DNA of 60,284 nucleotides, from contig CALYBB010000039.1 in NCBI GenBank assembly GCA_944393715.1, forward strand, positions 1-60,284, given 5' to 3'. The stretch's first letter is position 1; each line of letters opens with the position of its first letter. Positions 33,001 to 45,000 of this stretch are shown one piece after another. Source of the DNA: an uncultured Alphaproteobacteria bacterium (lineage in GTDB: Bacteria; Pseudomonadota; Alphaproteobacteria; RF32; CAG-239). Position numbers: made by a program.

Positions 33001-36000
33001 TGGGAAATGATTGAAGATATTTTCATTGGCGATAGCGCGACATTTGATGGACAAATTGCAGGCCCAAGTACATTACTCTTATATCCAAGGAAAGGCGCTA
33101 ATATCGGTGTTGATACAAACATTATCGTTTTTGGCCGTTCAGGTAATCGATATGTTTTTTATGTAAAATCCGAAGCGGTCAATACCGAAAGACTCACCAA
33201 TGCAATTATTGACATTGATGTCGTAGACAGCTATGCGCCGGATAATTCGACGGGTGGGACGCCCTTTGCAGGCGGAGGCATTGGCGGCTCGTCGGGCGGC
33301 AAATCTGTTGATGCAACTTATACGAGGCGTTTTCAAAAATCTGATTGGTTAAAGTCAATTCCGGTAGATCCGAGCGATTTTAAATTCGATCTAGAAGTTT
33401 ACGTCCCCAATCCGGACGATGTTGTAATTGCTCCTGAAAGAGTCTGGCGGGATAACATATTCACATATATTGATCTTGGTAAAAAAGCCTTAAATATGAC
33501 CCAGCGCCCTGTCGTCAGCATGATCGTCGAAAGGGTTGAAGTCCCTGTCGGCTTCCGCACAAAAGGTCCGGACAATCGCCTAATTATTGTTGAAGGCGTC
33601 GGCGACATGGTTTTGCGCAACGGCAAAAGAATTATCTGCATTAAAATGCGTCGTTCTGATGAGAGCGGGTTGGAGTTTGCCATCGATTCCCGAGACTATC
33701 TGCCGCCCACATGGGAAGTTGGCCCGCAAATACCTGGCCAGTCAAACGGAACTTCCGGCGCAGCCGGAGCAATGCCGGCTGTCGGTAATGTTTCGGGGAT
33801 ATCCGGAATGATGCCGAATGGAACCGCCGGCATGACGCAGGGAGTATCGATTCCTGCGGGTGGATCAAATGCCGCTGTTTCCGGACAACTGGATATTCAA
33901 GCGGGGCAAAGCCAGATAATTGTTCCCGAATATGCCGAAAACGGAGGAGACTATCGTCGCGGCGGTAATATCGCAGACAGTTTTGATTATTCTAAGATGC
34001 AGCGCATCAGCAATTCCGGCAATATTCCTCCGGCCGGCATGATGCCGCAATACGCCTATGGTGCAGGATTTAAGGGGGCTGATTCCTCAAATATCTCCAT
34101 TGAACTAGGAGCGGACGGAGATGTCTCAAAATTGGAAGAATTATGGAGCCGTTTATCATCCAAGTATGATGATGAACTCAGAGGAATGGCGCCGTTTTTC
34201 TCTGTGGATGCGCCGGCAGACGGCCAGGGTAAAGAATTGTTTCACCTGAGGGTCGGTCCCATAGAAAATCTTGAAACGGGAGACCGGATCTGCGGGGAGT
34301 TAGGGCGCAACGGTGTATTCTGCAGCGTGGTGAGGACGCAGTAAGCAAGTAAAATGAGCAAAGAACCGCTAACGCATTCTGAAAAATACGTCAAAAAGAC
34401 CAATACCATCATTTTGATGATTGGTCTTTCCTCTTTATTGATTTTTATTTTCGGGCTTGTTCTTTTGATTAAAAGCGGCGATGAAATTGCCGAATACGAA
34501 GATCCTGTTTTTACCGACAATGCAGATGTTTTTGACGACATTCCGACGGTTGAAAACACTCAAAGTATAGAATTTTCGACAATGGACGGCGAAATTCCTT
34601 TGACGACCACGCCGGATCCGGTACCGATGGGCGAAGTCGTTTTGGGAACCGATGCCAAAAACGTCCTGACTTTGGGGACAAACGGCAAAGCATCTGTCAA
34701 AATTGTTTCGGTAGAATTGGCTGAACCGCCGGCAGCAGGATTTGCTTTTAATGATAATTGTTCGGGGCTGACATTAACAGGAGACGAAACCTGCCATATA
34801 ACCATGAGCTGGGCGCCGGTTATTGCGGGTAATGTCCAAAATAACTTTATTATATCCTGGCATGAACTTAATTTAGGTAAAGACAGCGTCAAAGCGGCTA
34901 AAGTCCCTGTAACCGGCAATGCGGTAACGCAGGAAGATTGTAACTATTGCGAGCCGTTGCCTGGCGAAACGGCGGCGCAGGATGTTAAAGGTGTTCGCTA
35001 TGCTATAGGTCCCGATGGCAAGATCATCGGCATGATTGACGAAGACGGCTATGTTCGGGATGCCAACGGCAATATCATTGGTAGAGTCGGGGCAGATGGC
35101 CTTATCCTTGATGAAAACGGCAATGTTCTGGGTGTCGCCGAAAACCGTCGGGCAGTGTATGATGAGTTTGGCAATTTAATCGGTTATGCCAATCCCGACG
35201 GAACCGTGGTTGATTTAGACGGCAATGTTATTGGACGAATGCTTCCTGACGGAACCGTGGTTGATCTGAATGGCAATCCCATAGGCCGTGCGGTAGAAAC
35301 CGGTTTTGTTTATGATGAAAACGGCAATATTATCGGTCGTGTTTTGCCGGATGGAACGGTCGTAGACATGAATGGCAATGTCATTGGCCGCGTTCAGCCG
35401 GATGGAACGGTGGTTGATTTAGAGGGTAATGTTATCGGTTCCGTAACCAAACCCGGACGTGTTGCCGTTGATGAAAATGGACGGGTTCTTGGTGTCGTTC
35501 TGCCGGACGGCAGTGTCGTGGATGCCAACGGCAATGTCGTCGGCCACATGGATGAAAACGGCAATGTCCTCGCTAAAAATTCGCCATTGAATGGCAAAAA
35601 AATGCGCGTAGCTTATGATGCCAACGGCAATGTCATCGGTTATATTGATGAAAACGGGAATTTGGTTGATGCCAATGGCAACATCATTGGCAAGATGCTT
35701 CCGGACGGCACGGTTGTTGATTTGGATGGCAATGTTATTGGTTATGCAGGCGAAGAAATAGTTTTTGATGCTGAGGGCAATATCGTCGGCAGACTGGTTT
35801 CCTTTGATAAAATAGCCATCACGCCCCAAGGAACATTGCTGGGCGAACTGCAAAATGACGGTTCAATCGAAAATGAACAACAGCAAGTCGTCGGAAGAGC
35901 CTTGCCAAACGGACTGGTTAAAGATATTAACGGTTCAAAAGTCATTGCCAAGATGGTTAGAGCCGGCAGTATCATTGGTTATGGCTGTAATAGAATAGGC

Positions 36001-42000: not shown

Positions 42001-45000
42001 GGTACACGTATCATTGTTTATCCGAATACCGATTTGTGGCTGCGGACGATTGAGCGTGATTCGGAAGAGTCCCAAAAATACCAAAAACCGGAAATCTTGA
42101 TTGATGATGTCAAAACACAACAAGAGGCTGAAGAAAAAGATCGCGCAGAGATTGCAAAGGCGGCCTCAAGCGGTCAGGTTGTCTATGATCCGGATCAAGT
42201 CGATGTCGAAGCGGTAAGAGGAGGAACGCCGCCGTTGATTGATGATACAGCGCCCAAAAAGACTGGAAACACGTTGGCGCCGCCTCCGCCGCCGGCTTCC
42301 GGAACTTTGCCTGCGGCCGGAACACCGACAGCAGCATCCGGCGAGGCATCAAGCTCAACCACTAGTAGTGTTCCAGCCTTGTTTTAAGGAGTTGAAAGCA
42401 TGAGTTTCACCGTTTTGGAATCTGTTTTAAGGCCTCTTGCTTACTGGTATCAACAGGAGGGCATTGAAGAAGTCGCAATTAACCATGCTGGCGAGGTTTG
42501 GTTGCGCCTTCGAGGCAAAAGGGCGTATCCGTGGACAGCATATAAAGATGAAAAGCTGACTAAAGAATATCTGACGGATCTGTTATACATTATAGCCAAT
42601 ACCTACGAACTGCCGTTTGATCCGATTCAGGGCAACCCCGTGGTTTATGCAACCATCCCCGGCGAACACCGATTTTCGGCGATTTGTGGTAAAAATGTCA
42701 TGTACGACAATAACGACCTGACAGGCGGTATTGCGCTGACGATTCGTGTCCATGCCGACGATGTTGCATTTGGTCTGGGGGACTATGGCCTAATGCAGGG
42801 AGAGAAATTGCATAAAATCAATCCGCTAAAAGATATTAAAGAACCGGAAGATCCGTATGAGCGGTTGCTTTTGAGTATAAAGCGCGGCGATCATATTTTA
42901 GTTTCTGGAGCCACCTCAACCGGCAAAACAACTTTCCTAAACAATTTGCTGAAGATTTTAGACATCAACAAACGCATTTTAACTATTGAAGATACGCGAG
43001 AGCTTATTGTGCCGCACAAAAATCGTGTGCATATTACGTTGTCCCGTACCGAACAAACCAATGCCCTGAATTATGCCAAAGTCATTGATTTGGTCGTGCG
43101 CTTTACGCCTGATGCAATCATCGGTGGCGAAATATCAACCACTAATGCCGGTGCAATTTGGGAGTTGATGGGATCCGGACATGATAACTGCCTAGCCACG
43201 ATTCACGCCGAAAGTTCCGAAGCCGCCTATCAGGCTTTTACAGACCGTATTTTGCATACCTATCCGACTATTGACCGCAACAAAACCATTGAAGAAATGC
43301 GGCAAAAGCTTCGGGTTGTGCAAATTAACCGCGATGGCAATTTGCGCACTGTGACGGAAATTACTTAAAAAAGTGCAAGAGGCTTATAAAGAGCCTCTTT
43401 TTTCATATTTATTAACTCTAAATTTACAAGACATAGTCTACAATAGGCGAGTATGGAAAAATTTAACTTGTCGGCAAGATAATGGCATTAGAAATGGACA
43501 AAACAACGGAAGCTCGCCGCAAGGCGCTGCGCAACGGCGAAGAAGACCCTGTCGTTGTGGCACAGCGTTTTTTAAATATTTATCGGCAGATGCATATCCT
43601 AAGCCCAGAGCGCAAAGAGGCTTTTAACAAAATGCTCCTAGAACTCTCGCCGGATATAAGAGGAATTTTTTCATCTTTGCCGGGCGGAGCTATGCTGCAG
43701 GATTATGCGGACGAATTAGCCGAGCAATCAGGCTTGGAAAAATCATCACATCCATCGATGGAATCTCATCTAAACGAAGAAGCACATAAGCAGGCTCAGA
43801 TTTTAGCAACAGCTTTGGCCAAAGCACAAAGCCAGAATATCTCGGCAGCACCGGCGCCAACTATTGCAGGAACAACCAAAGTCAGCTTTGACAAAGATTT
43901 TGCTGTCGAGTTTGCAAAAACCATAGGCGGCGTTATTCAGCAACAAACATCGGTCCAAAAGGAAAGTCTTGAAAAATTGGTGGCAGATCTGAATAAAACG
44001 CAGTTGTTTATCGCCAAAAACATGAAAGACAACAAAGACGAGCAACATCAAGAGCTAGAAGAATTATGCCGGACAATTAGTGCCGGAAACGAACAAGCTC
44101 ATGCGGATCGGCAAAAAGAGTTTGCCGAATTATGTAAACTGGTCATAGCCAGCCTTAAGGCGGGCAGAGAAGAGCAGACACGAGGACTGAGCGAACTTTG
44201 TAAAATGATTACCGAGTCTTATCAAAATACGAGGGCCGAGCAAAATATTCAAATAGGAGAATTATGCAAAGCGATAATGCAAAGCCAGACGGCGCTGAGT
44301 GCATCGTTGAGTAATCTAAATCGCGAAGATTCGCTGTTGCCGCAGGCAAAAACAGAGACGATTGATAATTCAACCAGAAAATTGATAGAAGTTGTTTTAG
44401 ACGGGCAAAAACAGCTTAATCAACGTTTGGACAAGGTCGAAATATTATCGGCTGAAAAAGCCAATGATAATAAAGAATTGATAAAAGCTTTTGAAAAAAC
44501 ACAAGCCGAAATGGTTAAAGGTTTGGGGCGGATCAAAGACAGATCGCCGGCGGTGCGAGGCAAAGATGATACCGAAAAACTTATAAAAGCCATTGGGGAG
44601 TCTCAAAACCGCCTGATAAAAGAACTTTTGTCTGTAAGCGTTTTGCAAAATAATACCGCACAAGCCAACAACAATGCCAATAATATTCAAATCAACACGC
44701 CGGATAATTCGAGCCAGATTGTGCAACTGACCGAAAAAATTGCGTCATTGCAGGCGTCAAATGAGCAAAATATCGAAAAAGCAATTACCAGAACCATAGA
44801 AGAACAAGGAAAACTTTACGATAAAATCAGCCGGAGGCAGACCAAAGAACTGGCAGAAATGCTGGCATTGGCCTTAAAAGAAACAAATTTATCAGCCTCT
44901 TCTGATTTAATGGCTCAGCCGATTCGTCAAGAAAATCCGCTGCCGGAGGCCGAAGAAGCCATGCCGGAGTCTTTTTTTGGTGAAGAGGCTTTGTCTACAG

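Follow-up and report, generated by a model that had tools for sequence, protein, structure and literature searches.

The two adjacent open reading frames (ORFs) A and B in a 60,284-nucleotide stretch of an uncultured Alphaproteobacteria bacterium (contig CALYBB010000039.1 of assembly GCA_944393715.1, positions 1 to 60,284, in the following the window) probably represent one VirB10 protein of a type IV secretion system (T4SS), which was first expanded by a very large array of 17-residue hairpin units and then split into two genes, and whose halves would re-associate as a periplasmic bridge and scaffold. The coordinates of both ORFs had been given in an earlier reading of the DNA made without database searches, in the following the sequence-only reading, and were confirmed exactly. 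That reading described the upstream gene as a paralogous repeat-only membrane protein. ORF A contains, in addition to the repeat, an ASH domain (aa 84-191), and sequence comparison identifies it as the front half of a giant VirB10 that has been split, and not as an accessory paralogue. The parts of both ORFs are given below (aa, amino acids; AF2, AlphaFold2; pLDDT, predicted local distance difference test).

34354-37653, plus strand: ORF A, 1099 aa, putative N-terminal half of the split VirB10 with transmembrane anchor, ASH immunoglobulin (Ig) domain and about 51 hairpin units
34378-34470, plus strand: N-terminal transmembrane helix of A (aa 9-39), a helix in the AF2 model
34603-34926, plus strand: ASH/PapD-like Ig (beta-sandwich) domain of A (aa 84-191), a weak match to Pfam ASH (E 4.4e-4)
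34996-37623, plus strand: 17-residue beta-hairpin array of A (aa 215-1090), with canonical units at about aa 216-480 and degenerate units thereafter
37621-37650, plus strand: conserved C-terminal tail of A (...GEVAKNRRN), a short helix (1090-1098) in the AF2 model
37643-37659, plus strand: A/B junction with the Shine-Dalgarno (SD)-like GAAGGAA, the tandem stops TAA TAA and then the ATG of B
37657-42387, plus strand: ORF B, 1576 aa, putative C-terminal half of the split VirB10 with signal peptide, about 66 hairpin units, Gly-rich linker, TrbI barrel and tail
37657-37755, plus strand: predicted Sec signal peptide of B (aa 1-33), with cleavage after A31-N32-A33 and before the invariant QEITAI
37762-40356, plus strand: large block of degenerate hairpin units of B (aa 36-900), AF2 pLDDT about 88-97, about 100 strands
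40402-41145, plus strand: canonical hairpin units of B in three short blocks (aa 916-945, 960-1073, 1114-1163), AF2 pLDDT 75-83, with low-confidence linkers between them
41155-41469, plus strand: Gly/Pro-rich linker (GPGGAYG...GPGGGYGPGERYDP) and conserved pre-barrel segment of B, AF2 pLDDT 34 for aa 1167-1200
41470-42042, plus strand: TrbI/VirB10 C-terminal barrel domain of B (aa 1272-1462), PF03743 E 1.2e-33, profile positions 2-188 of 188
42043-42384, plus strand: C-terminal low-complexity tail of B (aa 1463-1576) with a poly-Pro run and the conserved end ...PALF

The assignment of A as the front half of a VirB10 follows from the homology of its N-terminal module, from the collinearity of A and B with unsplit relatives, from unsplit loci that contain no A gene and from a signal peptide on B in place of an anchor. 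The N-module starts with the short cytoplasmic motif HSEKYVKKTN and the transmembrane helix, both conserved in A orthologues and in unsplit VirB10s, and continues over a stretch that is disordered in the AF2 model (aa 40-80) to the ASH region, which is modelled as strands at pLDDT 70-83 and is closely followed by a conserved Cys pair (C196, C199). A Foldseek search with the model of A returned the ASH/PapD-like domains of CEP192 and HYDIN as top matches (probability 1.00, TMt 0.64-0.69), and no TrbI domain was found in ORF A using Pfam.

The TrbI region of B was searched against 1.84 billion representative proteins. Above about 50% identity the relatives are 1400-1900 aa long, at 40-50% a second group of 2085-2406 aa appears, and at about 35% the lengths fall to 500-630 aa. 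The relatives of 2.1-2.4 thousand residues also combine the hairpin repeats (Pfam Bflower, see below) with TrbI. They belong to an unsplit family of about 100 clusters of 2063-2609 aa from uncultured Alphaproteobacteria, whose members are annotated, where they are named, as hypothetical, DUF3659 or TrbI/VirB10 family proteins; altogether the single-gene giant VirB10s span 1930-2609 aa. The N-termini of the unsplit proteins share the module of A, with the motif SSEQYxKKSN, a transmembrane helix, the ASH domain and a D-C-x-x-C-E motif. In P0241, a single-gene VirB10 of 2266 aa, residues 8-211 align with aa 1-220 of A over the whole length at 26% identity (E 2e-15), and the best BLASTP high-scoring segment pairs (HSPs) place A 7-1098 on residues 8-1064 and B 42-1513 on residues 827-2214. 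The same collinear arrangement, A on the first half and B on the second half, was obtained in the best BLASTP alignments for six unsplit proteins. The N-module is present in 18 of the 194 TrbI proteins with 1300 aa or more, and these 18 have a median length of 2164 aa; the remaining 176 start with a short hydrophobic leader and then continue with QEITAI(D/N)FNG. The module is also found in repeat-less VirB10s of about 460-660 aa, 14 of which (459-656 aa, one of them from Microvirga tunisiensis) match a hidden Markov model (HMM) of the N-module with E-values down to 2.5e-11. Finally, the two unsplit loci examined, L084 and L085, show the gene order VirB8-VirB8-VirB9-VirB10-VirB11 and contain no A gene.

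The interpretation of ORF B as a VirB10 with a very large 17-residue array, already put forward in the sequence-only reading, is borne out by a full-length TrbI match (117 bits at a Pfam cut-off of 35). The closest solved relatives of this domain are ComB10 (2bhv, E 2.4e-19), TrwE, CagY and TraF, the ComB10 alignment covering residues 109-311 of a 417-aa query fragment, which corresponds to about aa 1268-1470 of B. Ahead of the barrel, the motif GPGGG.GPGERYDP in the linker region is kept across the family. At the C-terminal end (...P-A/E/Q-L-F) L1575 is nearly invariant and F1576 invariant, and the tail with its terminal motif, including the final Phe, is shared by split and unsplit relatives; a terminal aromatic residue in this position is reminiscent of the sorting signals of outer-membrane proteins. 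The N-terminus of B was less well described, since the supposedly normal transmembrane segment is predicted to be a signal peptide (A31-N32-A33 / QEITA). In 111 orthologues of the split type position -1 is occupied by Ala in 98 and by Ser in 11 cases and position -3 by Ala in 69 and by Val in 30 cases, and the leaders have an apolar run of 15 residues and an n-region net charge of +3 (medians). Given this signal peptidase I pattern (AxA/VxA) across the orthologues, the hydrophobic N-terminal segment of B has the appearance of a Sec signal peptide that can be cleaved, and not of a membrane anchor. A single chain from an inner-membrane anchor to an outer-membrane barrel, as required of a VirB10, is therefore not provided by B, but it is present in the unsplit relatives, and A and B provide both ends jointly.

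The junction between the two genes reads ...AAT TAA TAA ATG, with GAAGGAA located eight bases upstream of the ATG of B, and this combination of an SD-like element, tandem stops and an immediate start codon suggests coupled translation of A and B. Both ORFs are in one reading frame in the window, but the orthologous loci differ in the spacing as well as in the frame of the junction. Two separate cistrons are thus the rule. A read-through of the in-frame TAA TAA was also considered and rejected, because orthologues have other frames and spacings and a signal peptide in the middle of a protein would make no sense. In the tail of A, which ends directly at this junction, the columns E1092, A1094 and N1096-N1099 are nearly invariant in 32 orthologues.

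In a neighbour-joining tree of the TrbI domains, the leaf order runs from most of the short forms to most of the unsplit giants, and the split forms make up one contiguous block. An expansion followed by a single fission appears to be the most economical history for this pattern of sequences. The ancestor would have consisted of a short cytoplasmic tail, a transmembrane helix, an ASH/PapD-like Ig domain, a Pro-rich linker and the TrbI barrel. Within the linker the 17-residue hairpin array would have reached a length between about 1,650 and more than 2,000 residues, which would have led to the single-gene VirB10s of 1.9-2.6 thousand residues, and in the lineage of the window a single fission inside the array would have followed, with the downstream half gaining a Sec signal peptide. 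In the sequences of the window, A has the anchor for the inner membrane, the Ig domain and about 51 units, and B has about 66 units, the Gly-rich linker and the outer-membrane TrbI barrel.

The periodicity of both arrays is well defined. BLOSUM autocorrelation of A and B peaks at lags of 17, 34 and 51 residues, and compared with 300 shuffles the lag of 17 reaches z = 19.0 in A (aa 216-1090) and z = 17.3 in B (aa 37-1161), whereas the TrbI part of B stays at z = 0.2. An iterated cyclic profile of 17 columns yielded the consensus YVNPDGTVVDNNGNVIG and was used to count the units: A contains 40 near-complete units in about 51 unit lengths (aa 216-1090) and B 44 in about 66 unit lengths, many of which are degenerate (aa 37-1161). 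This confirms that the upstream gene carries the same repeat, which no other ORF in the window has. In A a super-period of three units (51 aa) is also visible. At the DNA level the families of direct repeats share 60-85% identity between copies, and the only tandem detected with TRF comprises 2.8 copies of 51 nt at 83% identity in the canonical units of B (40578-40718); near-identical direct repeats that would allow in-frame recombination were not found in A and B. In the large degenerate block of B the positions are conserved from species to species: dozens of Gly columns are invariant across orthologues at 25-77% identity, and the majority-residue conservation is 0.5-0.8. The lowest column conservation in the family (0.35-0.42) is found for the canonical units near the TrbI linker (aa 901-1100), which is also the most length-variable part. 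Among 138 distinct indel events in 120 B orthologues, 6 are multiples of 17 aa, a number that is uninformative as the gap placement by MAFFT is unreliable in repeats.

The nearly identical segments of A and B that were quoted in the sequence-only reading are present in the translations, and the DNA underlying them is 77% identical over 131 nt. We compared the best 34-aa window between A and B in 24 genomes and obtained 22.3 of 34 positions within and 21.7 between genomes, the value for the genome studied here being 29 of 34. We also considered whether A and B evolve in concert or exchange sequence by gene conversion, and found no general signal of this in the 24 genomes. As there is no general excess within genomes, the near-identical stretches seem to reflect mostly the closeness of the canonical units to the consensus.

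The repeat itself, which had been left without a family in the sequence-only reading, belongs to the Pfam beta-flower/DUF3659 group (PF21785, PF21784, PF12396). Bflower_2 (PF21785) matches A with 226.6 bits (E 4.5e-68) and B with 239 bits at a cut-off of 38, Bflower (PF21784) reaches 88.1 bits on A and 84.7 on B at a cut-off of 25, and DUF3659 (PF12396) 94 bits on A and 42 on B. The beta-flower fold is known from AlphaFold predictions only, and its Pfam families, created in 2023 and including PF21784, PF21785 and PF21786 of clan CL0395, have no assigned function (Durairaj et al. 2023, PMC10584680). Beta-flowers comprise about 96-116 aa, in which four, five or six hairpin petals form a closed, shallow barrel that in many cases encircles a hydrophobic helix at the C-terminus, and a semi-conserved [DNEQ]xxG motif defines the tip of each hairpin (PMC10584680). 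The same tip, D/N-x-x-G, is found in most of the aligned units of A and B, whose consensus ends in VVD-N-N-G-NVIG.

A resemblance to YD/Rhs repeats had also been noticed, and this holds locally but not for the overall shape. RHS_repeat (PF05593) matches A with E 3.5e-17 and a total of 62.7 bits at a cut-off of 22, without a single stretch that is significant on its own, and stays below the cut-off on B (17 bits). A sequence search of the PDB with the canonical repeats produced weak matches to Rhs and teneurin proteins, the best Rhs match being 7q97 (E 5e-6). AF2 models built from orthologue alignments reached a pLDDT of 79.1 and a predicted template-modelling score (pTM) of 0.68 for A and 84.4 and 0.72 for aa 1-1200 of B. 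According to DSSP they contain two short strands per 17-residue unit in both proteins, with pLDDT 80-93 for aa 480-1090 of A and one confident block at about 90-95 for aa 36-900 of B. The first Foldseek matches of the B model are Rhs, teneurin-like and Tc shells (E 8e-18 to 1e-9 over about 1000 columns), but with template-modelling (TM) scores of 0.05-0.08 and a root-mean-square deviation of about 30 A there is no global superposition. The hairpins are therefore predicted to be YD-like, while the modelled overall path does not correspond to a closed Rhs cocoon; it could be a row of stacked flowers, an open ribbon or a solenoid. The ASH domain was the only part of the A model for which Foldseek found a match in the PDB, with nothing returned for the array, and a search of viral predicted structures with the B model gave only fibre matches of low probability.

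Both halves are widely distributed. More than 1000 proteins match A and more than 1000 match B, and the best 120 of the latter are all 1448-1828 aa long and combine Bflower with TrbI. Relatives are encoded by 306 genomes of a collection in which each species is represented once, and the best 80 of these are all metagenome-assembled genomes (MAGs) of uncultured Alphaproteobacteria from gut, rumen or caecum of human, Hadza, chicken, mouse, ruminant and other hosts. Among the names given to them are 'Proteobacteria bacterium CAG:495', 'Candidatus Scatocola faecigallinarum', which is filed under Rhodospirillales by NCBI, and 'uncultured Azospirillum sp.'; we take these genomes to be placed in the GTDB order RF32. 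In about 70 of the 83 loci that offer sufficient flanking sequence the genes follow the order VirB9-A-B-VirB11, A having 1037-1624 aa, B 1440-2081 aa and VirB11 322 aa in nearly all of them. The most extreme split form is encoded in the rumen MAG RUG12396 (L068, 6728-17184), where A with 1397 and B with 2081 aa add up to about 3,500 residues; the array length thus varies about 1.4-fold between lineages. The sequence-only reading had named an assembly artefact as a possible objection, and this is excluded by the divergence of the DNA copies together with orthologues of similar length in hundreds of independent assemblies. Furthermore, housekeeping and flagellar genes adjoin the cluster in L084 and L085 and the contigs reach up to 531 kb, which together with the occurrence in 306 species makes the secretion system look chromosomal and vertically inherited.

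The split VirB10 is embedded in a cluster with the composition of a VirB/type IVA system (VirB2, B4, B6, B8, B9, B10 and B11), in the order VirB8, VirB8, VirB9, A, B, VirB11, with two VirB8 genes identified by Pfam (30869 and 31938) upstream of VirB9 and with VirB2-like genes, VirB4 and VirB6-like genes further out in the window. The direct neighbours of A and B are:

32680-34344, plus strand: VirB9/CagX homologue, 554 aa, PF03524 E 9e-13, directly upstream of ORF A
42400-43368, plus strand: VirB11 ATPase, 322 aa, T2SSE E 2.3e-21, directly downstream of ORF B

The VirB9 of the window ends in a weak SPOR-like domain (E 0.0075) after a Gly/Ser/Ala-rich linker, and a weak SPOR match is also on record for the VirB9 of L084 (8190-9917), which neighbours an unsplit giant VirB10. 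SPOR is a peptidoglycan-binding domain. Scans of the unannotated neighbouring genes with Pfam and NCBIfam yielded only coiled-coil noise.

Several other genes of the cluster are enlarged or duplicated. Three VirB2/TrbC-like genes with a common NWKWF/L membrane motif are arranged in tandem (13126-18792, plus strand) and encode proteins of 114 aa (13126-13470), 261 aa (13619-14404) and 1444 aa (14458-18792). The last of these has an unusual size for a pilin-like protein and places its pilin-like hairpin (about aa 400-450) between very long regions rich in K/E/A/Q, which are probably coiled coils. A complete-looking type IVb pilus cluster (3097-12315, plus strand) lies directly upstream of the T4SS genes and comprises TcpQ, a secretin, PilO, an unknown protein of 446 aa, a T2SSE ATPase, a T2SSF platform protein and two pilins of the PilS/bundlin type; this pairing recalls the IncI plasmids, which combine a thin pilus with a transfer system. 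The two VirB8 genes are adjoined on their upstream side by a gene for a secreted-looking protein of 1300 aa (26948-30850, plus strand), acidic and rich in coiled coils, with an N-terminal signal-like sequence and no Pfam match. As a 1273-aa gene occupies the same position in the locus L001, this protein may be a system-specific component. Behind VirB11, where a coupling protein might be expected, a 792-aa ORF (43482-45860, plus strand) without a family match contains a run of 13 lysines (DNA 45100-45140), encoded by A7-A8 tracts that are interrupted by single G residues; these tracts would be prone to slippage and a frame shift could occur there. Further downstream (49816-59043, plus strand) two enlarged VirB6/TrbL-like proteins of 786 and 835 aa flank an unknown protein of 445 aa and a 1005-aa protein with an M23 peptidase domain. 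Enlarged and duplicated components such as the VirB6-like pair and the two VirB8 recall the rvh system of the Rickettsiales. The only minus-strand gene inside the cluster (48516-49517) encodes a protein of 333 aa with two HTH_3 (Cro/C1-type) domains and is a candidate regulator of the system; it is kept at the same position in L001. In general, the inflated components agree better with an elaborate, dedicated machine than with a conjugation module from a plasmid.

A canonical VirB10 reaches across the periplasm, connects the inner membrane with the pore in the outer membrane and links gating to ATPase activity (PMC9371333), and the repeat-rich middle regions of CagY and DotG, which are unresolved in structures, have been proposed to form a periplasmic 'collar' (10.1101/2023.03.22.533729). 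Based on this, we assume that A and B, made by coupled translation, would re-associate in the periplasm via their arrays and in this way restore the bridge from the inner to the outer membrane. The arrays are placed between the membranes because of the anchor on A and the barrel on B, and they would form a very large and rigid collar-, ring- or cage-like scaffold around the secretion channel. It is likely, as we infer from the whole of the analysis, that the arrays serve as a large periplasmic scaffold of an expanded chromosomal T4SS, and the enlarged periplasmic core, fibre or cage envisaged in the sequence-only reading seems plausible. At 14 copies, which assumes the canonical stoichiometry (usually 13-16), the added mass can be estimated at about 28,000 residues (about 3 MDa). 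Only tentatively, and as something we consider rather doubtful in its full extent, we suggest a two-piece non-covalent VirB10 bridge in which about 117 YD-like hairpins per pair, repeated about 14-fold, build a megadalton periplasmic cage or collar of a new architecture, representing an undescribed class of expanded T4SS that could enclose or gate substrates in the manner of the Rhs/Tc cocoons.

Several points weigh against the proposed split and re-associated VirB10. The signal peptide of B is called by sequence rules only, and both the association of A with B and the periplasmic location of the array are inferred. Depending on the geometry, about 117 hairpins per A/B pair could far exceed the width of the periplasm, and a compaction would then be required. 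The neighbour-joining tree has no support values, and the unsplit P0280 lies outside of the main group. Foldseek against the PDB found no global match for the array (TM score at most 0.11), and scans of the window proteins with Pfam and NCBIfam revealed neither a coupling protein nor a relaxase.

A different function of the hairpin array, namely binding to the cell wall and thereby anchoring or spacing the machine at the peptidoglycan like choline-binding or CROP-type hairpin solenoids, appears unlikely, but it is the best of the alternatives. It would agree with the weak SPOR domain on the neighbouring VirB9, with a hint from the annotations of some beta-flower relatives and with the three-unit super-period in A, while the Foldseek matches to CbpF (rank 41) and to the TcdB repeats (rank 32) that point in the same direction have probabilities of only 0.04-0.06, and an aromatic ligand-binding motif of the kind known from choline-binding repeats was neither looked for nor seen. 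A peptidoglycan-binding role can, moreover, coexist with a periplasmic scaffold. Somewhat less probable is that A goes back to a duplicated repeat part of VirB10 and acts as an accessory paralogue in its own right, a separate partner like DotF with DotG. The shared repeat with its near-identical stretches would be expected in this case, and A and B together hold more array (about 2,000 aa) than P0241 (about 1,650 aa), on which their best HSPs overlap at 827-1064. However, the part of A that is not repeat, its transmembrane and ASH module, is the N-terminus of unsplit and repeat-less VirB10s, exactly this module is replaced by a signal peptide in B, no A gene is present in the two unsplit loci, and the similarity of A and B shows no general excess within genomes (22.3 versus 21.7 of 34 positions). 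A slightly lower probability still is given to an array outside of the cell, acting as adhesin, sheath or fibre in contact with host or prey. An elongated all-beta repeat protein is typical of fibres, viral fibres are among the low-probability Foldseek matches, and the adjoining type IVb pilus cluster hints at a contact-dependent lifestyle; yet an array between the inner-membrane anchor of A and the outer-membrane barrel of B has a periplasmic topology, the degenerate block is conserved (0.5-0.8 majority identity) unlike surface antigens under diversifying selection, and the DNA repeats are too diverged for recombination in the style of CagY. That the long ORFs result from a repeat assembled wrongly or from a pseudogene interrupted by a nonsense mutation, for which the common frame of A and B with only TAA TAA between them might speak, can be dismissed with near certainty in view of the two-gene layout in about 70 independent species-level assemblies with differing junction spacings and frames, the conserved signal peptide on the B orthologues, DNA copies that are merely 60-85% identical and the tight conservation of length.

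Repeat-expanded VirB10s (CagY, DotG), the repeat family in Pfam and the combination of Bflower with TrbI in database records are already known, and the most surprising element is the fission of VirB10. Full-text searches, although incomplete in coverage, returned no paper on a VirB10 expanded by beta-hairpins, on a VirB10 divided between two genes or on the secretion system of these Alphaproteobacteria of the gut. VirB10 is the only T4SS component thought to span both membranes and is believed to relay ATP-driven conformational signals of the inner-membrane ATPases to the outer-membrane gate, and a natural and widely conserved split between anchor and gate tests the need for covalent continuity in this coupling. 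The system is also a third, independent case of a massive repeat expansion in the middle region of VirB10 after CagY and DotG, with a different, all-beta repeat. The graded series of relatives, with single genes of 0.5, 0.9, 1.2 and 2.0-2.6 thousand residues and the split form, could be used to map the function of the periplasmic 'collar'. Furthermore, the functionally blank beta-flower/DUF3659 family gains a concrete cellular context, and a conserved and heavily elaborated secretion system is flagged in common uncultured Alphaproteobacteria of the human and animal gut.

Among the known systems, CagY (Cag7) of Helicobacter pylori is the closest precedent, which was missing from the sequence-only reading. 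Like B, it is a giant VirB10 (1927 aa) with a TrbI-type C-terminus, to which B aligns in the PDB entries 6x6j/6odi (E 6e-5) and 8cb2 (E 1.6e-6), and with a very large repeat region ahead of the barrel, and the Cag system is an 'expanded' T4SS, the core complex of which is much larger than the minimal one (PMC9371333). In contrast to the split A/B pair, CagY forms one chain that includes a membrane anchor. Its repeats are largely helical, and its near-identical DNA repeats recombine in frame to tune secretion, whereas the units of A and B are 17-aa beta-hairpins with DNA copies of 60-85% identity and a main block that is positionally conserved. DotG/IcmE of the Legionella Dot/Icm system (type IVB), the precedent named in the sequence-only reading, is a fair analogue: it has a repeat-rich middle of variable copy number and a proposed collar that reaches the inner membrane, its repeat being a 10-residue motif, [KR]xAG[FY][STND]xxx[LI], with weak matches to pentapeptide repeats (10.1101/2023.03.22.533729). 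No Pentapeptide family is among the Pfam matches of A and B, and their period is 17 and not 10. A second inner-membrane-anchored partner, DotF, is encoded near DotG as A is next to B, but A is demonstrably the N-terminal part of a VirB10, which is not known for DotF.

With the beta-flower proteins A and B share the sequence family, the short antiparallel hairpins and the [DNEQ]xxG tip. In contrast to the described beta-flowers, for which no link to a secretion system has been reported, the 51 and 66 units of A and B run on without clear domain-sized breaks. The YD/Rhs proteins are also built from a hairpin repeat, with a YDxxGN-like motif that recurs in many units of A and B, and the size of the array is comparable to that of an Rhs shell. 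However, the unit of A and B has 17 aa, compared with about 20 aa in YD units and 38 positions in the Pfam RHS_repeat profile, and the C-terminus of B is a TrbI domain; neither an Rhs-associated toxin nor any other Rhs-type domain is among the Pfam matches of A and B, the Rhs core motif itself not having been searched for. The starting point of the proposed expansion is illustrated by the repeat-less alphaproteobacterial VirB10s, for example WP_152714064 of Microvirga tunisiensis (603 aa). They have the same N-module and the same TrbI barrel at about 35-40% identity and are encoded by single genes, with a Pro-rich linker of a few dozen residues in place of the array of about 2,000 residues.

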